IMG/VR virus record: IMGVR_UViG_2698536676_000006
Reading direction: 5' to 3' (one strand)
Source of the DNA: a virus
Lineage: Duplodnaviria; Heunggongvirae; Uroviricota; Caudoviricetes
DNA length: 24,534 nucleotides
This document shows, one piece after another, positions 5,577-15,653 of the stretch. The notes under the pieces were generated by a model that saw nothing but the letters and a program-made list of their open reading frames with translations, searched no databases and had not been told where the DNA came from. Position 1 is the stretch's first letter. Each line of letters begins with the position of its first letter. A program made the position numbers and the translations under genes.

Positions 5577-5980
5577 TGTGGGCCTCCTGTCGAATCGCTG
5601 CCGCCTTTCACGCCACCGTGTTTATGCGTATGCACTGTAATGCCGTTTGAGGTGAAGTTGCCGCCGCTGTGCGTGATATTGCCGCTCATCTTTCCTCCTT
5701 TTGTGACGTCAAGCGTCGCCGTTCTCAGAAGGTTTGTGCATTCCACGACGGGCGTATCCAGTTTCACGCTGACGGATGCCTGTAAAGTGGCCGTTTTCAT
5801 GCCGCTGGCGCTCAGTGCGCCAGCGTCCGCGTCGTAGCGGAACACCGCGCCGTCCGGCGCGCTGATCACGATTTCTTTCAGGCTTTTGCCGGGGGCCGGA
5901 CTGGCATCACTCCACAGGCTGCCAATTATCATGGCGGTTACGGCGATCTGTGCCGTCATAACTGGTATTCGTGCGCGCAA
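5573..5980 (-). pseudogene. Baseplate spike gpV, C-terminal fragment, fused out of frame to the capsid remnant
   Basis: ISAPDGAVFRYDADAGALSASGMKTATLQ...KLDTPVVECTN...GGKMSGNITHSGGNFTSNGITVHTHKHGG resembles the C-terminal half of P2 gpV; the N-terminal half is missing. Confidence 0.7.
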
Positions 5981-7232: not shown

Positions 7233-8495
7233 ATGATTCAGGACGCTTTTGTGCGCCAGCGTGCGCGGCAACTTTACTGGCAGGGTTATCCGCCCGCAGA
7301 AATATCACGTCTGATGGGAATAAACCCGAACACGATTTATGCGTGGAAAAAACGCGACCAGTGGGATGAAACGCCCCCCGTGCAGCGTGTCACGCAGTCC
7401 ATCGATGCGCGCCTCATCCAGCTTACTGAAAAACAGAATAAAACAGGCGGTGACTTTAAGGAAATAGACCTGCTGACCCGGCAGCTTAAAAAGCTGCATG
7501 ATGGCCAGCCGGATGTGATGGCCGCAGGAAAGAAAGGCCGGGCGAAAAAACTTAAAAATCATTTCACGCCGGAACAGATTGCCGCACTGCGGGAAAAAAT
7601 CATCAGCAGGCTGGAGTGGCATCAGCGGGGCTGGTTTGACTCCCTGACACTTTGCAGGGAAGCCGGGATACGTAACAGGATGATCCTGAAATCCCGACAG
7701 ATTGGGGCGACCTGGTATTTTGCACAGGAAGCTCTGCTGATGGCGCTGCGTGACGATGTGGCGCAACCTTACCAGCGTAACCAGATTTTTTTGTCTGCGT
7801 CGCGTCGTCAGGCGTTCCAGTTTAAAAGCATTATTCAGAAGGTCGCGGCTGAAGTTGATGTGGAGCTGAAAGGGGGCGATAAAATCATCCTCTCCAACGG
7901 CGCAGAGCTGCATTTTCTCGGCACTTCTGCTGCGTCGGCACAGTCCTATACGGGCAATTTTTATTTTGATGAATTTTTCTGGGTCAGTCGCTTTGCTGAA
8001 CTGCGCAAGGTGGCTGGCGCTATGGCAACCCTCAGCGGACTGCGGCGCACCTACTTCTCCACGCCATCCACCGAAACGCACGAGGCGTACGCCTACTGGA
8101 ACGGCGACCGCTGGAACGAGAAAAAGGCCTCGCATAAACGCCAGCGTTTTTCTGTGGACTGGAAAACGCTGCATAACGGGCTTATCTGCCCTGACCGGAC
8201 TTGGCGGCAAATTGTCACGCTGGAAGATGTGGTTAATCACGGCTGGAAACACACCGATATCGACGAAATTCGTGATGAAAACACCGAAGACGAGTTCCTC
8301 AATCTCTATATGTGTGAGTTTGTCCGCGAAGGGGAATCGGCATTTAACCTGAATATCCTGATTGGCTGCGGTGTTGACGGATACGACGACTGGAAAGACT
8401 GGAAACCTTTTGCTCCCCGCCCGATGGGGAATCGTCCGGTATGGATTGGGTATGACGCAAACGGCAGCAGTGGCAACGGCGACATGCCAGCTTGA
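7233..8495 (+). pseudogene. Terminase ATPase subunit (P2 gpP-like), C-terminally truncated
   Basis: 420 aa with N-terminal ...LYWQGYPPAEISRLMGINPNTIYAWKKRDQWDE; P2 gpP is about 590 aa as I recall. The ORF ends shortly after VWIGYDA, and portal Q, cos and the tin/old region expected between P and A are absent. Confidence 0.75.
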
Positions 8496-8560: not shown

Positions 8561-8670
8561 TTTACGGGATTCTGAAATCCCGTTTTTGCCTGTTTTATGC
8601 GCGCTTCATATATCGCGGCGCGTTTTTTGCTCATTTACGGGATTTGTGAATCCCGTTTCTGTCTGTTTTT
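8561..8670 (+). repeat. Two diverged direct repeats (8561-8596, 8634-8670), each an 8-bp-stem hairpin ACGGGATT-N4-AATCCCGT followed by a T-run
   Basis: Read directly: tttacgggattctgaaatcccgtttttgcctgtttt and tttacgggatttgtgaatcccgtttctgtctgttttt. Confidence 0.6.
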
Positions 8671-11428
8671 TGTTTCCACTGGTCAGGCCACCCCGCAGCA
8701 GGTCTGCTTTGCGGTGGGCGCGTTCAGTTGTTTCACTGATTCTCTGTGCGTGCTCTGCGTCGCGGATGGCGCGCAGCATGTCAGAAAGTACGGTAACGGG
8801 TGTTTTCATGGTGTTCTGGTCTTGCTGAAGTGTGGATGCCAGGCGTGCGGCGGCTTCATGGTCTGATGCCCTTAGTTGTTCCAGATAGCCGGCGACCGGG
8901 TTATGGCGGATCTCCGTGCTGCTTACGCCGTGATTACGGCTCAGGCGCTGCCAGAGCTGCGTGATTCGGCTGTCCGGGCGGGTATCCGGTTTGCGTACAA
9001 TTTCAAATCCCTGCGGTGCAATGATGCTGCCGTCAACGTACAGGCTGCCGCCCCGTAACAGGTGCTGCATCTGCTGTTCACCGATATGCAGGCCGAGAGA
9101 TTCGGCAGATTCCCGCCATTCTTTAGCGAGTAATTCGTGGTTATCAGGCAAAGGCCGCTGCTGTTTGCGGCTCTGTGTCCAGCTCTGCATTTCATCACTG
9201 CTGTTTTTTGCCTGTTTGTCACGCAGCGAACGCATCAGCGCCCGGCGTTCGTGCCGTTTCAGTGAGCGCATCCAGTCATCCACATCAACGCCGTCAGGAA
9301 GCTGCGGCCACAGTGCTGGCCGTTCTTCCGGCTGTTCTGTCCCGTTGTTGTCCGTTTCCTGTACACGGGGACAGTTATTGCCACGAGTCCAAGGGGCGGC
9401 AGGGCCGCCCTGAAGGTCAAAACCATTTTCGTGGGCGTTGTCTTCCGGTTCTGGTTTACGTCTTACCAGCTTCCAGTTATCCGGATGCGTGCACACACGG
9501 GAGGATTCCCCGATGAGTGGTGACCAGATCCCGTAAATCTGTACGCTCTGTTCGCCGTAATCGTTCAGCTCATCTGCGAGGTCGTAGGCGGTGCGAATCA
9601 GGTAGTCCTTGCGTGGAACAAGCACGCCACCCTGTTTTTCAATGTAGGTGGCAAAACACCCGGCATCGGCGGCAGCGAGTACCGCATCCATTGCATCATC
9701 TTTCAGCCGTTGCGGGCCTTCCGGATTGCGTGCCATCTGGCTGGCAAGGCGGCGCAGTTCACGCCACACCTGACGGGAGGGGATGCCAAAGAACTGGAAC
9801 TGACGGACCCGGTGAAGGCGCGCCCAGCCGATGGCGCGCTCCACGCTCTCGGCCATTGATTTTCCGGTTTCGTGGTCAACGCGTGGCTTGCCCGTTTTCG
9901 GGTCGATGCCATCCACGGCGCGGCTGTCCAGGTTCTTTCCGATGTAGGTGGCGATGTAGCTGGTTGGTGTGCCTTTTGAGCCGTCGACATACTCCGCCTT
10001 AAAACGCGGAGTTATGTCATCGCCCAGCTCGTGGCGGTCCTCCTGAATGGCAATATCGCAGACGTGGGACACGATGGTTTCAATCTCGTCCGGATGTGCA
10101 AAGACCATCATATGCCAGTGCACAGTGCCGTCATGGTGAGGCTCCACCGTGCGGATGCCATACCAGCGCAGGCCGTCGCGGTTCAGTTTTTTGCGGACCG
10201 CCGCAAAAAACGTGTTAACCAGGTAATCGCTGGAGTCGCGCATGGTGGCCCCGTTCCATTTGGGGTTCGGATGACCGTTCTCCGTTGTTGCGTGGTATTT
10301 TGACGGGCAGGTGACGGTCAGAAACACCGCTCTGTCGCCACGGGCTTCGGCCAGAAGTTCCAGTCCCTTCATGGTGGCCATCATTTCTGCCTTACGGTGA
10401 ACCGGGTTACTTACTCCCGCGTAATACACCGTCTCGAGATCAATCGTGAACCCGTCTTCATTTTCCAGCATGAAACTTTTCAGGAAATCGCGTGTTTTCT
10501 CGCGCTGTGCGCGAAACTCGCTTAACGCGTCCTGGCTCAGATAGGGGGATGTTTTTCTGGAAACCAGACAGGCGGCGCGGAGTTGTTCTTCCCGCCACTC
10601 ACAACGTAACAGCCACAGTTTGCGTTTCCACCATTCCGCACAGGTCAGGCGAAGGATTGCGCCCGGCAGCAGCTCCGTGTCCGGTTCGTTCCTCCGGTCT
10701 TTGTCTGTTGTCAGTGCGTCATAATGTGGAGGCATGGCGTGCAGGTGTAACGCCATGCGGGCCAGCATCTGATAAGCCTTCAGCGTTACATCCATGGTCA
10801 GCTCGCCATCAGTCGCGCCAAAGCCATCGCAGAGTTTTTCGAAGGTGCTGCTGAACATCGCCGCCGTCATGGTGGCCAGCGTCTGTATCTGGTGTTTGTT
10901 GAGCTGCGGCAGGTAAAGCAAATCATCCAGGCGTTCGCGTCCGGCAAGGGAGCGATAACCCGGTGTCAGCCAGCGGTGGTCGGTGCGGTCCAGACGTTCG
11001 AATATTTTGCGCAGGGTTCCGCACGCGTAGCGTTCAGCCTGCCAGCTCTTGTTGCCTTTCCGGCGATCGGCTTCCTGTTTTTTGCGCAGGAAGGAGAGGT
11101 GGCGAATAAGCGGATCGCGCAGATAGGACGGCAGCAGGCGCAGCGAGGCCATGGCTTCATCCACCGCGCCACGTGCCTGTTTTCTGGCGTCTCCTGCCAG
11201 TGTGATGGTTTTGTCCTGTTTTTCCTGTGCGTCCAGGCTTTTATTAATCAGGTTGCCCAGCGGCGTGGCGGAGAACGCCGCATCAGCCATTTCCTGGCGG
11301 CGCTCGTTCTCTGCCCGGTAGGCATCCAGCCAGGAGGAAAGCGCGGATTCAGGAGCGGGGATCCCCGTTCCTTCACGCCCCACTGCGTGGCGCGGTTGTT
11401 GCCAGTCCCTGATGTACTCTGCCGTCAT
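8606..11428 (-). CDS. Replication initiation endonuclease (P2 gpA-like, HUH rolling-circle nickase) with a C-terminal extension
   Basis: 940 aa; ...TVTCPSKYHATTENG...GIRTVEPHHDGTVHWHMMVFAHPDE... matches the P2 gpA catalytic core (HUH motif HWH). About 180 aa longer than P2 gpA (761 aa as I recall); the last codons run through the 8634-8670 hairpin. Confidence 0.85.
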   Translation of the reverse strand: MTAEYIRDWQQPRHAVGREGTGIPAPESALSSWLDAYRAENERRQEMADAAFSATPLGNLINKSLDAQEKQDKTITLAGDARKQARGAVDEAMASLRLLPSYLRDPLIRHLSFLRKKQEADRRKGNKSWQAERYACGTLRKIFERLDRTDHRWLTPGYRSLAGRERLDDLLYLPQLNKHQIQTLATMTAAMFSSTFEKLCDGFGATDGELTMDVTLKAYQMLARMALHLHAMPPHYDALTTDKDRRNEPDTELLPGAILRLTCAEWWKRKLWLLRCEWREEQLRAACLVSRKTSPYLSQDALSEFRAQREKTRDFLKSFMLENEDGFTIDLETVYYAGVSNPVHRKAEMMATMKGLELLAEARGDRAVFLTVTCPSKYHATTENGHPNPKWNGATMRDSSDYLVNTFFAAVRKKLNRDGLRWYGIRTVEPHHDGTVHWHMMVFAHPDEIETIVSHVCDIAIQEDRHELGDDITPRFKAEYVDGSKGTPTSYIATYIGKNLDSRAVDGIDPKTGKPRVDHETGKSMAESVERAIGWARLHRVRQFQFFGIPSRQVWRELRRLASQMARNPEGPQRLKDDAMDAVLAAADAGCFATYIEKQGGVLVPRKDYLIRTAYDLADELNDYGEQSVQIYGIWSPLIGESSRVCTHPDNWKLVRRKPEPEDNAHENGFDLQGGPAAPWTRGNNCPRVQETDNNGTEQPEERPALWPQLPDGVDVDDWMRSLKRHERRALMRSLRDKQAKNSSDEMQSWTQSRKQQRPLPDNHELLAKEWRESAESLGLHIGEQQMQHLLRGGSLYVDGSIIAPQGFEIVRKPDTRPDSRITQLWQRLSRNHGVSSTEIRHNPVAGYLEQLRASDHEAAARLASTLQQDQNTMKTPVTVLSDMLRAIRDAEHAQRISETTERAHRKADLLRGGLTSGNKKQTETGFTNPVNEQKTRRDI

Positions 11429-11434
11429 AGTGAT

Positions 11435-11800
11435 TTACTTCGTCATGCCATTCAGGGTGTCGCGGCAGACTGTAGCCAGCCGCTGAATTTCCAGCACGGT
11501 GTCTTCTGTGTCGGCATGGCGATGTGTGATGCGGATGCTGTCGGCAATCACATCGACGATTGCAGAGGATGGGCGCTGGTAAATGCCAATAACGGACGGG
11601 GTGCCACCTTCAATGCGGTAAAGCCTGTAATTTCCCTCGTGGCTGTCAATCATGTAGCGACCATCAATAACAATCTTTCCGTCAGCGAGCTGCGGTACAG
11701 GCAGGGATTTCAGGTACATGTCATAACGATCACGCACGCGAGCGGCAAGATCTCGTTCTGTGTTGAGCAGGTATTCAAGAAAGTCGTTGGCGAGAATCAT
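11435..11800 (-). CDS. Hypothetical early-operon protein (121 aa) directly upstream of gpA
   Basis: ATG with AGAGGA Shine-Dalgarno; 6-bp gap to the gpA start. Confidence 0.6.
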   Translation of the reverse strand: MILANDFLEYLLNTERDLAARVRDRYDMYLKSLPVPQLADGKIVIDGRYMIDSHEGNYRLYRIEGGTPSVIGIYQRPSSAIVDVIADSIRITHRHADTEDTVLEIQRLATVCRDTLNGMTK

Positions 11801-11872
11801 TGCGGCAATCCTCTTGTTACAGATGTGCGAAGGCCTCCCGCCGCAAGGTGCAGGAAAGGCCCGGAACAGGAA

Positions 11873-12103
11873 TTAATGGAGTTTGTTTTGCTGCTGGATG
11901 AGCTGTTGAAGCTCGTGCAGATCATCCGCCAGATAGCTGAAAACAGAGGCGGAATAAATGTTTGATAGTGCGTGGCTGCGCTCATGCAGCATATTGATGT
12001 GCATGATTTGCGCGACGCGTGATGCGCGGGAAAGTCTGTGGTTGATTTCAGTCTGGATGTGACGACGCTCCGCGATAGTGCGGTGCTGTTTGCGGTCTGC
12101 CAT
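11873..12103 (-). CDS. Hypothetical early-operon protein (76 aa, basic, no Cys)
   Basis: ATG at 12101-12103 with AGAGG upstream; no recognisable domain. Confidence 0.5.
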   Translation of the reverse strand: MADRKQHRTIAERRHIQTEINHRLSRASRVAQIMHINMLHERSHALSNIYSASVFSYLADDLHELQQLIQQQNKLH

Positions 12104-12425
12104 GGTGTGGCCTCTTTGCTCGGTGATAGAAATAACTCACCATCCAGAGTTGAGAATCTCGGGGTGGCGAGACGTACAGGGTTCTCAACACCGGAGAGCA
12201 AAGAATCCGGCCCGACCGAAGTCGGCCCCGTACGCCCCGCCATAATTCTGACGCGAAAAAGACGTGGCAATACAGTGCGCACAAAAAAACCGCTTGCGCG
12301 GTTATGCGCTTTGCTCTGTATCGGGTTGAGAATCCCGGCACCCGTTTTATGAGCTGCAGCGGAAATGTAACCTGACCGATTGAGGCATGGCAAGCGGTTT
12401 TTTTGTGTGTGCATGTTCTGGTTTC
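12104..12425. other. Structured non-coding gap inside the early operon: nested direct and inverted repeats; candidate ncRNA or regulatory/origin-like element
   Basis: GTTGAGAATC[T/C]CGG at about 12150 and 12325, inverted partner GTTCTCAAC at about 12175; CTTTGCTCT / AGAGCAAAG copies; 18-bp inverted repeat cacaaaaaaaccgcttgc at 12281-12298 and 12391-12408; hairpins TCTCG-N6-CGAGA, CCGGA-N9-TCCGG, GGCCCGAC-cgaa-GTCGGCC. Confidence 0.4.
12283..12310 (-). terminator. Candidate rho-independent terminator (AACCGC-gcaa-GCGGTT then TTTTTTTG on the minus strand)
   Basis: Plus strand reads caaaaaaaccgcttgcgcggtt; on the minus strand the hairpin is followed by a 7-T run. Confidence 0.5.
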
Positions 12426-12725: not shown

Positions 12726-12988
12726 GCTCTGGCTTCCTTCAGTAGCTGGTTAAACATGTGAGTAAGTGGATTGCTACACCCGAACAGCATCGGGTTTACG
12801 TGGTAAGAAGCCTGGCCTCCTGTTTTGCGAGCGCGACCACCTGTGCTGCGGTTTGTTCTGATGACTAAGCCGCCGCGCCAAAGTCGGCGTAACTCAGCAT
12901 TAATGGCTGTGGTTGGGGTATTCAGTGCTGCGGCGATCTCTCCGCCGCTACACCCCGGATGAGTAGCGATGTAGTCCAGAATGGTCAT
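12722..12988 (-). CDS. Putative winged-helix DNA-binding protein (88 aa)
   Basis: MTILDYIATHPGCSGGEIAAALNTPTTAINAELRRLWRGGLVIR looks like an HTH / winged-helix; AGGAG Shine-Dalgarno; ATGA overlap with the upstream gene. Confidence 0.6.
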   Translation of the reverse strand: MTILDYIATHPGCSGGEIAAALNTPTTAINAELRRLWRGGLVIRTNRSTGGRARKTGGQASYHVNPMLFGCSNPLTHMFNQLLKEARA

Positions 12989-13188
12989 CTGCGTGGCTCC
13001 TGTACCTGTCGGATAAGATTCACCCGCGCCACGTTGGTGGCGCAGAAGTAAGTGCCGTCAGTGAGGTAGATGTGGTGTGCATCCTTTTCCGAACGATGTT
13101 TGTCGATAGTGGTAATCAGGCGTTCGTCGACCTCGTATTCGCGCCCTCTGGAGGTAAAGCGAACGACGGGAAAATGCTTAATTGCCAT
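12985..13188 (-). CDS. Hypothetical protein (67 aa)
   Basis: ATG with AAGGGGG Shine-Dalgarno. Confidence 0.5.
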   Translation of the reverse strand: MAIKHFPVVRFTSRGREYEVDERLITTIDKHRSEKDAHHIYLTDGTYFCATNVARVNLIRQVQEPRR

Positions 13189-13242
13189 TGCGCCCCCTTT
13201 GTCCAGTAACCCTATGCGTTAAATACGGCACATTGCGCGTCA

Positions 13243-13629
13243 TCAATGAATACAGCTTGAGAGCGTTCTATCAGGCGGAGATTTGTCAGAAGCTCTGACT
13301 CTTTTGTGTGGTAAGGCGTTATCAGGTATTTGCCGTGCAGTTCGGCAATAATGGTGTATTGCAGCATCATTGCTGAACCAAGAATATAAAATGCAGCGTC
13401 CAATGCTGGACGGATTCATGGCTGCAACTGTTGACTGTGTTTTAAGAGTGTCGATTTCTTTGCTCTGTTCCTCAATAACTTTGGCTGCTTCAGAGGCGGC
13501 TATTGCGATGGTCAGTGCGTAAAGCGCTGCCATATGTTGATTATCTTTCTGGGCTGCCCTGGACAGCTTGTCTTGCTCTGCTGACACTATTTTTAATGTA
13601 TTGATAATATTTTTTTCTTTTGCGTTCAT
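13243..13629 (-). CDS. Hypothetical protein (128 aa); N-terminal half coiled-coil-like, C-terminal half possibly frameshifted
   Basis: Strong start (GGAG then ATG at 13627-13629); a 63-aa ORF in another frame (13212-13403, TTG start) overlaps the 3' half. Confidence 0.45.
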   Translation of the reverse strand: MNAKEKNIINTLKIVSAEQDKLSRAAQKDNQHMAALYALTIAIAASEAAKVIEEQSKEIDTLKTQSTVAAMNPSSIGRCILYSWFSNDAAIHHYCRTARQIPDNALPHKRVRASDKSPPDRTLSSCIH

Positions 13630-13721
13630 TTTATATCTCCGTTATTTACGTGTGCGAATACCTCCGCGAATGCGGATAGTTTTCAGGTTTTCGGGTTTAA
13701 TCTGGTGTTTTGTTTAAGCTG

Positions 13722-13835
13722 TTATTTGTCAGTAAAAAAGCGTTCAATCTTTTTTACTGAATGAATAATTCGCATAATCCCAATGGCGCAGGCCACCGAA
13801 ATAATCAGAACAAGCCATGAGATAAATATACTCAT
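13722..13835 (-). CDS. Small hydrophobic peptide (37 aa, MSIFISWLVLIISVACAIGIMRIIHSVKKIERFFTDK), predicted single transmembrane helix
   Basis: Not in the ORF track (under 60 aa). Hand-translated: ATG at 13833-13835 overlaps the stop of the 80-aa gene upstream (ATGA coupling); a 20-residue hydrophobic stretch is followed by a basic tail. Confidence 0.4.
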   Translation of the reverse strand: MSIFISWLVLIISVACAIGIMRIIHSVKKIERFFTDK

Positions 13836-14074
13836 GCGATATTCCCCAGCTTATACGGTTCAATGTGTTCCCCGCATTCTGCGGCACAGATCAGCTCGGA
13901 AAGTTCGTTAAGTGCATCCAGATCATCAGCGTAAAAAGCAACGTCATACAAACTCCGGATTGCCCTGGTCAATGAGTCACGGGCTGCATGTTCAGCATGA
14001 GCGCCTGATGCACTTAAGCGAAAATAAAATCGTTCAAGTGCTTTGTTAATGAGAGTTTTATATTCTTTGCCCAT
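13832..14074 (-). CDS. Hypothetical protein (80 aa)
   Basis: ATG with AAGGG Shine-Dalgarno. Confidence 0.55.
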   Translation of the reverse strand: MGKEYKTLINKALERFYFRLSASGAHAEHAARDSLTRAIRSLYDVAFYADDLDALNELSELICAAECGEHIEPYKLGNIA

Positions 14075-14085
14075 CGCAACGCCCT

Positions 14086-14364
14086 TTAATCTGCTTTCTG
14101 AATTTCAGCTTCTGAATCCATACAAATAATTTCGATATAGGGTTCATCGCCATTAACCTGACGTGCCTTTTCAGCTTCGCTAATGATTTCTCGTACGGTC
14201 TGGTACGGAAGCTCCACAGTCAGGCGCGTACCGTTCAGATAAACGTAAGTAGTTGCGTTTTTTTCGGATGGAACAACTCCGTCAATGGCTGATGCGCGTA
14301 ATAACAGTTCACCGCGAAAATCAATAAAACGGATAAATACACCTTGTGCATGCTCTTTGGTCAT
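14086..14364 (-). CDS. Hypothetical protein (92 aa from the ATG at 14362-14364)
   Basis: AGGTG Shine-Dalgarno 5 nt upstream of that ATG; the tool's 14424 start is TTG and overlaps the upstream gene. Confidence 0.55.
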   Translation of the reverse strand: MTKEHAQGVFIRFIDFRGELLLRASAIDGVVPSEKNATTYVYLNGTRLTVELPYQTVREIISEAEKARQVNGDEPYIEIICMDSEAEIQKAD

Positions 14365-14374
14365 AAAGCACCTG

Positions 14375-14725
14375 TTATAAATCAGCCTGTTTAATAAAAC
14401 TTTGCCCGCGAAGCAGACGATCAACCGTGCGAAGTGCTTCGTATAATGTGAAATCCTGCCCGAAGTGATTGTCGCCGCAGTTCAATGCAAAAATGCGGTT
14501 TCCGGTAAACGGATTGCGTGGGCATTTGTGGATCACGATTCCAGCTTTCTCAATCAGCCAGGCATGCTCGCCGATTTGTTTTACAGCGTGGCCATCCGGT
14601 GTTGCGTGCGTCTCGTTCAGGTTATAGCGACTGTTACTACGTGATGCACTGGTAGCGACGTGGTGTACATGGCGTTCTACGCTATTACGAAATTTGGAGT
14701 ATGGATTATTAGCGTTTTTTTTCAT
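14375..14725 (-). CDS. Hypothetical protein (116 aa, His/Cys-containing)
   Basis: ORF with ATG start in operon context. Confidence 0.55.
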   Translation of the reverse strand: MKKNANNPYSKFRNSVERHVHHVATSASRSNSRYNLNETHATPDGHAVKQIGEHAWLIEKAGIVIHKCPRNPFTGNRIFALNCGDNHFGQDFTLYEALRTVDRLLRGQSFIKQADL

Positions 14726-14746
14726 GATGGTGCTCTGTTCATTGTT

Positions 14747-14950
14747 TTAGCTGTTAGCCAAAGCGTCTTTTAACATCGCCACAAGGTTTACTTCAGGCTT
14801 TTCCATTTTGGCGCGTTTGGGGCGGATAATAATTCGACCGTCAGCCAACATCTTTTTGCATGTATTAAGAGGGATACCTGTTATCTCTGCATATTTCTGC
14901 AGGGATACATAGGGGGCATTCACATTGATATTGATGGTTATACCTGACAT
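14747..14950 (-). CDS. Cox/Apl-like excisionase-type HTH regulator
   Basis: 67 aa; ...APYVSLQKYAEITGIPLNTCKKMLADGRI... resembles the P2 Cox HTH region as I recall it; correct position in the early operon. Confidence 0.6.
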   Translation of the reverse strand: MSGITININVNAPYVSLQKYAEITGIPLNTCKKMLADGRIIIRPKRAKMEKPEVNLVAMLKDALANS

Positions 14951-14966
14951 CCCACTAGCCTCCTGA

Positions 14967-15173
14967 TCAGGAAGATTTGTTTTGTTCTTTCTGGGTTAGC
15001 TCTAGGCCGCGAAGGAAGATCATGCGCGCCATGTTAGAGGATGAGCGTTGTTCTTTAGCTGCCATTTCATCAATGACGGCTCGCTCCTCGAGGGACAGCC
15101 GAAGTGCCAGTCTTGGACCTGTGGCGGTGTTACGCGGAATGCGTGATCTGGTATCGTGAAGAACTTGTTTCAT
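14967..15173 (-). CDS. Putative ribbon-helix-helix regulator, first gene of the early leftward operon
   Basis: 68 aa; LALRLSLEERAVIDEMAAKEQRSSSNMARMIFLRGL fits the RHH beta-strand/helix pattern; no clear Shine-Dalgarno. Confidence 0.5.
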   Translation of the reverse strand: MKQVLHDTRSRIPRNTATGPRLALRLSLEERAVIDEMAAKEQRSSSNMARMIFLRGLELTQKEQNKSS

Positions 15174-15248
15174 AGTGGTATATTGTGATCATCTAATAGC
15201 TCGTGAAATCATTTGGTATCAAAAAAGATACCTGTCAAGGTTTTTTGT
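15174..15248. promoter_or_regulatory. Immunity-switch intergenic region between divergent early operon and repressor; 18-bp palindrome GGTATC-aaaaaa-GATACC (15215-15232) as candidate operator
   Basis: Perfect palindrome read directly; a TTGACA hexamer on the minus strand (15233-15238) abuts it. Confidence 0.5.
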
Positions 15249-15653
15249 ATGAAAAATGATATTGGTCAGCGGTTGCGTGAGGAAAGGGAAAGATTGGGAC
15301 TTAGTCAAGTTGCCATGAGCGACATTGGTGGAGTCAAAAAGCTAACTCAGCTTAGATATGAGAAAGGAGATAGCTTTCCTGATGCTGCGTATTTGGCAGC
15401 GCTGTCTCGTTTTGGCCTTGATGTTCAGTATGTTGTGTTGGGAATTCACTCACCTGAAACTTATAACGATGATGAGCAGGAGTTGATTACTCGCTTTCGA
15501 GCAGCTTCGTTAGATGTGAAAAACGCGGTGATTGGGGCTTTAAAAGGTGCGATCAGTGAAAAGGAAACTCAGCCATCAGGACGTGAGTTAAATATTTCTG
15601 GTGGTAATAACCGTATCGCTGGTCGTGACTATAACGAAACTAAGGGTAGGTGA
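15249..15653 (+). CDS. CI/C-type immunity repressor (XRE-family HTH)
   Basis: MKNDIGQRLREERERLGLSQVAMSDIGGVKKLTQLRYEKGDSFPDAAYLAALSRFGLDV is a canonical XRE HTH; ATG at 15249 preferred over the tool's TTG at 15213; integrase-proximal, divergent from the early operon. Confidence 0.75.
   Translation: MKNDIGQRLREERERLGLSQVAMSDIGGVKKLTQLRYEKGDSFPDAAYLAALSRFGLDVQYVVLGIHSPETYNDDEQELITRFRAASLDVKNAVIGALKGAISEKETQPSGRELNISGGNNRIAGRDYNETKGR

Follow-up and report, generated by a model that had tools for sequence, protein, structure and literature searches.

A selected small gene for a predicted single-pass membrane peptide overlaps the DUF4754 gene in the early lytic operon of P88-type prophages

The 24,534-nucleotide stretch of DNA analyzed here (the window) contains a 37-codon ORF that, judged by its pattern of conservation, is a genuine and selected gene. 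The ORF is physically coupled to the gene for an 80-aa DUF4754 protein within the early lytic operon of an E. coli prophage that is P2-like and of the P88 type (Peduoviridae, Xuanwuvirus), and its predicted product belongs to a familiar class, the small early membrane proteins of phages. Our best guess for the role of this peptide is that of a host-physiology modulator, a reading favored by its operon position, by the lack of a nearby antitoxin RNA, and by a constraint on the peptide that exceeds that on DUF4754.

Read from 13835 to 13722 on the minus strand, the ORF translates to MSIFISWLVLIISVACAIGIMRIIHSVKKIERFFTDK (37 aa), exactly the peptide given in a preliminary description of this DNA, which did not state the strand. 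There is no earlier in-frame start upstream of its ATG, and the ATG shares the sequence ATGA with the stop codon of the DUF4754 gene, an overlap that the preliminary description had already pointed out and that would allow translational coupling (Table 1). A Shine-Dalgarno-like GGGG precedes the start codon, and in divergent clades the same position is taken by GAGG, AGGAG or GGAGG. Since 86 ATG ORFs of 30-60 aa occur in the window, the length of the small ORF by itself says little. A programmed -1 frameshift that would join DUF4754 to the peptide was considered as well and is unlikely, because no slippery heptamer was found ahead of the overlap by inspection.

Table 1. Features of the small ORF and its surroundings, in window coordinates.
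Feature	Position	Strand	Description
37-aa small ORF (predicted single-pass membrane protein)	13722..13835, stop codon included	-	ATG-initiated ORF, read 13835 -> 13722
ATGA overlap	13832..13835	-	small-ORF ATG (13833-13835) and TGA of the 80-aa DUF4754 gene; arrangement allowing translational coupling
Shine-Dalgarno-like GGGG	13844..13847	-	8 nt before the small-ORF ATG, within the 3' end of the DUF4754 gene
DUF4754 gene, 80 aa	13832-14074	-	upstream partner of the small ORF; Pfam PF15946, E 9e-54
phrog_3800 protein	14086-14364	-	early lytic operon
DUF4761	14375-14725	-	early lytic operon
Cox-like excisionase/repressor	14747-14950	-	early lytic operon
Arc-like repressor, 68 aa	14967-15173	-	phrog_3431, E 1e-28; heads the early operon
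Hairpin/palindrome TCCGC-N4-GCGGA	13663..13676		in the 92-nt gap (13630-13721) after the small ORF
isrK Hfq-binding RNA	12283-12357	-	Rfam, 59.5 bits; adjoins C4
C4 antisense RNA	12160-12247	-	Rfam, 78.5 bits; within the early operon
'Derepression' protein gene	11873-12103		C4 and isrK just upstream

The surroundings of the small ORF agree with the prophage early region proposed in the preliminary description. A conserved block of genes runs in the order Arc-like, Cox-like, DUF4761, phrog_3800 and DUF4754, with the peptide as the last cistron, and a repressor-type HTH gene and the integrase gene lie to the right on the opposite strand. The small ORF is followed by a 92-nt gap, a frameshifted gene, and genes for a phrog_3459 protein, a MarR-type winged-helix protein and an Ead/Ea22-like protein, beyond which are found the isrK and C4 RNAs, the 'derepression' protein gene and the replication endonuclease gene gpA (8606-11428). 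A consensus promoter scan of 12900-15400 found one promoter-like site upstream of the small ORF on its own strand (14049-14021, inside DUF4754, 9/12 matches), in a region where the total of such sites was no greater than in shuffled sequence. Two features of the annotation in this region stood out. The Arc-like ORF is unlisted in the identical RefSeq record, where an opposite-strand 45-aa hypothetical protein is given instead (~15022-15159, plus strand), a likely mis-annotation; and a mechanically called 205-aa ORF (11797-12414) that overlaps C4 and isrK is probably spurious.

Compared with P88, the prophage in the window is defective. It is without ~5 kb (P88 15447-20423; junction ~5936-5939) that holds part of the capsid gene, the small terminase, head completion, holin and endolysin genes and some tail genes, and a second deletion of ~4 kb (P88 8902-12900; junction ~8483-8484) removes parM together with a partition gene, the portal gene and the C-terminal portion of the large terminase, and gpP is shortened to 420 aa. 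The next gene downstream of the peptide (phrog_9338, 13213-13630, minus strand) is frameshifted by one extra T in a T-run (13388-13391, plus strand). It encodes 138 aa when intact, as in O157:H7 strain H2495, and RefSeq flags the window copy as a pseudogene. The peptide and DUF4754 genes are intact despite this decay, and, the prophage being defective, this strain may leave the peptide gene unexpressed.

The description of the ORF as unannotated held for the ORF track used in the preliminary description and failed for RefSeq, GenBank and UniRef, all of which list it. The peptide is identical to RefSeq WP_000021655.1, a 'hypothetical protein' whose accession is shared by ETEC and O157:H7 genomes, and exact matches to it lie on at least 1000 contigs. 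It is 94.6% identical to the 'membrane protein' gp07 of phage P88 (YP_009113050.1), which occupies the same place after DUF4754; the same ORF is labeled 'putative membrane protein' in vB_EcoM-569R5 and 'Prophage membrane protein' in UniRef (A0A0C2F1Q7), and full-length copies in sequenced P88-like phages are 84-95% identical by tblastn. By identity and position alike, the peptide belongs to the DUF4754-linked small membrane protein cluster represented by WP_000021655.1 and P88 gp07. These two entries and A0A0C2F1Q7 are the same gene as ours, with no differences that set it apart, and are name-only entries. A literature search on the function of the peptide sequence, DUF4754, WP_000021655 and P88 found nothing. 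Together, DUF4754 and the peptide occur in 1361 of 5426 complete E. coli genomes (~25%), including O157:H7. One copy of this E. coli-type module was seen on a 226-kb contig titled Vagococcus sp. WN89Y (L084, NZ_JBQPOM010000071.1), with a DUF4754 99% identical to that of the window and a peptide that differs in its last two residues only (...FFTGE); that assembly is probably contaminated or mislabeled.

Family models added little to these names. The peptide has no match among Pfam, PHROG, NCBIfam or PADLOC models, and no solved structure was found for it by sequence. When the peptide and 22 family members were searched against Pfam, only sub-threshold chance matches were returned (PET117, DUF6007, DUF2975 and DUF6095). 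The match to PET117 (E 0.19, 12 bits against a cut-off of 27) and one to phrog_5620 (E 0.36) were set aside as hydrophobic-segment noise.

Conservation in related prophages, a check proposed in the preliminary description, was run here with the DUF4754 gene as anchor. The close set comprised 80 IMG/VR loci and three annotated records (83 loci, 28 peptide variants), and in 83/83 the 80-aa DUF4754 gene is followed by an intact small ORF in the ATGA overlap. Repeating the viral scan with a broader DUF4754 alignment returned the same 80 close loci, and a genome-contig scan with the DUF4754 alignment returned two loci. A phmmer search of the whole library with the peptide itself retrieved nine cluster representatives only, three of them divergent (41, 41 and 59 aa at 64%, 57% and 47% identity), each of which belongs to a P2-like early operon and overlaps, by the same 4 nt, the 80-aa DUF4754-type gene directly before it. 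Divergent loci were then collected clade by clade, with 14 further IMG/VR loci bringing their total to 21, and all 21 keep the intact small ORF and the ATGA overlap after an 80-aa DUF4754-type gene. ORF and overlap are thus kept in 104/104 loci, which refutes non-conservation. The range of the family is narrow, limited to prophages of Escherichia, Salmonella and Citrobacter.

Substitutions within these loci point to selection on the encoded peptide. Among the 32 DNA haplotypes of the close set, variable sites fall 9/4/17 on the three codon positions, and pN/pS is 0.26 in the small-ORF frame and 1.5 and 0.9 in the remaining two. Between clades, dN/dS is 0.08-0.34 at dS values that run from 0.3 to above 2, where synonymous sites are saturated. 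Of the six frames, the small-ORF frame alone stays open throughout the clades, the other five each being closed in at least one, and a purine-rich Shine-Dalgarno-like motif is kept before the ATG in each clade with a sequence that differs by clade. Across clades the peptide is 48-64% identical, compared to 27-41% for DUF4754, even though the DUF4754 gene is itself strongly selected. Selection on the frame, taken with its ribosome-binding context, makes it very probable that the small ORF is a real, translated membrane-protein gene.

The last residues of the peptide are variable or dispensable, and the tail past residue 33 is replaceable. Divergent clades end in FTG[DE]xRxK, and some close loci (L039, L040, L065, L080, L081 and L083; proteins P0061 and P0062) carry a 45-aa form in which a T6 to T5 change at codons 33-34, by slippage in a T-run, creates a polar C-terminus (SL[VMA]N[ND][DR][TA]NK...). 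Because several distinct haplotypes of this form exist, it looks like a stable allele and not a sequencing error.

The single hydrophobic helix with a basic tail that the preliminary description had proposed fits the structure predictions. Residues 3-21 have a 19-residue Kyte-Doolittle mean of 2.68, which ranks first among the 86 ORFs of 30-60 aa, and AlphaFold with a 22-sequence alignment predicted one continuous helix over residues 2-35 (pLDDT 88). The N-terminus is short and uncharged, every charged residue is C-terminal to the hydrophobic stretch, and the tail (residues 22-37; basic residues R22, K28, K29 and R32) has a pI of 10.3. Under the positive-inside rule, this placement of charges gives a predicted topology in the inner membrane with the N-terminus out and the C-terminus in.

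Sixteen positions are invariant or nearly so (M1, S6, W7, L10, I11, A17, G19, I20, M21, R22, I23, I24, K28, I30, E31 and F34), and they persist across the clades with saturated synonymous sites. Conservation along the sequence shows a periodicity that is strongest at 103-105 degrees per residue, a signal of modest significance after correction (permutation p 0.006-0.014, nine angles tried). The pattern suggests one conserved face, formed by S6, W7, L10, I11, A17, G19, M21, I24, K28, E31 and F34, that would extend beyond the membrane segment to the tail, as expected of helix-helix packing.

The DUF4754 protein is acidic (pI 5.2), the opposite of the peptide tail, and was modeled by AlphaFold as all-helical, with helices at 4-48 and 52-66 (pLDDT 90.6). 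Fold searches of PDB and BFVD gave no match below E = 0.2, and a PDB sequence search returned designed helical repeats only, so the partner gives no functional clue. In every case, even where DUF4754 identity falls to 27%, the peptide gene stays next to the DUF4754 gene with the ATGA coupling intact. In one mosaic locus (L087), a DUF4754 of the window type stands before a peptide of the divergent type, which indicates that a tightly co-evolved heterodimer is not required and that the two are exchangeable modules. Database 'DUF4754' proteins of 103-128 aa were considered as natural fusions to the peptide and rejected: they are frameshifted reads, mostly from Logan assemblies, that enter the wrong frame, and therefore not Rosetta-stone fusions. 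Candidates of 109-116 aa (P0002, P0004, P0016, P0022, P0034, P0038 and P0052) are wrong-frame read-through entries of this kind, with no natural in-frame fusion among them.

The gap after the small ORF contains a hairpin whose 5-bp stem never changes and whose loop takes several forms, found in 61 of the 83 close loci and 12 of the 21 divergent loci though the downstream genes differ by clade. The hairpin is A-rich upstream in the operon sense, so the plus strand reads as a hairpin followed by a T-run and is terminator-like. As a terminator for an antisense small RNA, in the geometry of a type I toxin-antitoxin pair, it was rejected since the opposite-strand promoter-like site that would be needed is not conserved: the closest relative (L085) and two divergent clades (L086 and L184) lack the site, and L185 has only a weaker one at another distance. 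In one divergent clade the hairpin is missing from all eight loci (L176-L183). Two loci of that clade (L176 and L178) have a second small hydrophobic ORF 13 nt past the small-ORF stop, MKNVKAILTIATVWLIFQVCALIWLALKIWG (31 aa), which has no PHROG match.

Several temperate phages carry small host-directed genes in a comparable position. The fil and dhr genes of 186 and kil and cIII of lambda are non-essential early host-modulating genes that lie between the switch and the replication genes, their operon being shut off by repression in lysogens; their products, to our knowledge, are not transmembrane peptides. In phage P2 the equivalent interval (orf78, B, orf80-83) holds unrelated genes, and Orf78 is hydrophilic. 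Small membrane proteins that inhibit division include SPO1 Gp56 and Caulobacter SidA. The closest documented functional analogue is Gp11 of the S. aureus temperate phage PhiNM1, a small early membrane protein that blocks division by binding the host membrane proteins MurG and DivIC, and not through pore formation (PMC11237401). The peptide is like Gp11 in its operon position among early temperate-phage genes and in its predicted helix; the hosts differ, no coupling of Gp11 to a partner gene is described, and the likeness is a functional one for which no sequence relationship is expected. A division or peptidoglycan phenotype for the peptide is, by this analogy, a conjecture.

From these observations we propose, tentatively, that the peptide is a partner-binding modulator. 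When the repressor is relieved or a cell is infected, the early transcript would be made, and ribosomes ending DUF4754 would reinitiate at the overlapping ATG, so that DUF4754 and the peptide would be made together. The peptide is predicted to insert into the inner membrane as one helix, with its N-terminus periplasmic and its basic tail cytoplasmic, and would act by sequence-specific helix-to-helix packing along the conserved face. Its partner may be DUF4754, a host inner-membrane protein, or both, and through it the peptide would change the physiology of the envelope or of division at an early stage of lytic growth. Helix, insertion and topology are predictions; expression timing, partner and physiological effect we infer.

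Small membrane peptides of prophages also include membrane-damaging toxins, and a peptide of this kind, whether type I toxin or holin-like, would oligomerize within the inner membrane, dissipate the proton-motive force and cause host shutdown or death on prophage derepression. Type I toxins (Hok/Gef, Ldr, TisB, DinQ, Ibs, ShoB and ZorO) comprise fewer than 60 aa and combine a single hydrophobic helix with an end that is polar or charged, and several are prophage-borne. The peptide resembles those of the Hok, Ldr, TisB and DinQ type in size, single helix and charged C-terminal tail, its conserved small residues (S/A13, A17 and G19) could support self-association, and its coupling to an upstream frame recalls hok, which is translationally coupled to the overlapping mok frame. 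Beyond these likenesses the comparison breaks down: the upstream frame here is instead a strongly selected 80-aa protein gene, and the peptide has no transcription unit of its own, its start codon being inside the preceding gene of a polycistronic operon. No toxin family was found in Pfam, NCBIfam or PADLOC for the peptide, nor in Pfam for any of the 22 family members, and the only Rfam matches in the window, C4 and isrK, are 1.4 kb off, which leaves no antisense antitoxin RNA near the gene. Lacking an antisense RNA, an own promoter and a toxin-family match, the classical type I form is disfavored. Collapse of the membrane potential by an early gene upstream of the replication genes would moreover harm the phage, and P88 (L190) has a separate hok/gef-family gene, the 'MokW-like host killing' gp52 (34928-35068), near the other end of its prophage map, so that a classical type I toxin is already encoded elsewhere in P88-type phages; nothing equivalent to gp52 was detected in the window. 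The predicted transmembrane helix and charged C-terminal tail are shared with holins, pinholins and antiholins as well, features too generic for membership, and the peptide gene is not in a late lysis cassette: in P88 the holin/antiholin gp30 adjoins the endolysin gp31 in the late region, ~15 kb from gp07 of the early operon. A peptide more conserved than its neighbor, and conserved on one helix face, fits specific binding better, though a specific homo-oligomeric pore is still compatible with it. Overall we regard a membrane-damaging toxin as unlikely.

The invariable adjacency and coupling of the two genes, the opposite charges of DUF4754 and the peptide tail, and a conserved stripe that extends into the cytoplasmic tail would suit a peptide that is a mere membrane anchor, holding a complex at the inner membrane with all activity in DUF4754. 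Against this doubtful account, the peptide is the more conserved of the two, including deep-membrane residues that an anchor would not need, the partners are exchangeable as in the mosaic locus, and the supposed fusions are artifacts. Superinfection exclusion or lysogenic conversion, in which the peptide would be made in the lysogen and block the entry of incoming phage DNA or alter the cell surface, has precedent in the small inner-membrane proteins of temperate and other phages that commonly exclude (T4 Imm, P22 SieA and HK97 gp15), and retention of the gene in a defective prophage whose next gene is frameshifted would suit it. It is nonetheless quite improbable: the gene follows the Arc-like and Cox-like genes in the early lytic operon, whose strand is not that of the repressor and integrase genes, so it should be repressed in the lysogen, and the sole same-strand promoter-like site upstream is of a kind no more frequent than in shuffled sequence. 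Far less probable still, and strongly disfavored by the sequence comparisons, is a non-functional frame kept by chance, by hitch-hiking or through some other DNA or RNA role. The narrow range of the family, and a translation that is read from sequence, would be compatible with such a frame; its intactness in every locus, the third-position excess, a dN/dS well below 1 in this frame only, the closure of each other frame in at least one clade, and the Shine-Dalgarno-like motif kept via different sequences all argue against it.

For the partner-binding modulator, residue persistence across clades, helical periodicity and a conservation above that of DUF4754 suggest specific packing over generic hydrophobicity. 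The obligate pairing with DUF4754, the opposite charges, the early-operon position opposite repressor and integrase, and the precedent of Gp11 fit this reading as well. Weighing against it are the mosaic locus, the replaceable C-terminal tail and the modest significance of the periodicity. Over-produced small hydrophobic peptides often damage membranes non-specifically, and damage of this kind may be compatible with the data as well. A bolder form, which we consider unlikely, is that DUF4754 and the 37-41-aa peptide make up an unrecognized two-protein early-lytic module, whose membrane subunit would dock a heptad-like conserved face on a conserved inner-membrane protein of E. coli, for instance one of the divisome, of envelope synthesis, of transport or of membrane-bound defense.

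The existence of the peptide gene is not surprising, and the gene is worth simple experimental follow-up. It indicates that a gene of fewer than 50 codons can be the most constrained of its neighborhood, here exceeding a neighbor that is listed in Pfam. Should the two-protein module prove real, about one E. coli genome in four would encode a natural peptide inhibitor of a new kind, and a new host target would come with it. Should the peptide recognize one particular membrane protein of the host, evolution would have supplied a compact inhibitor, and with it a means of probing an as yet unstudied early step in the development of P2-like phages.
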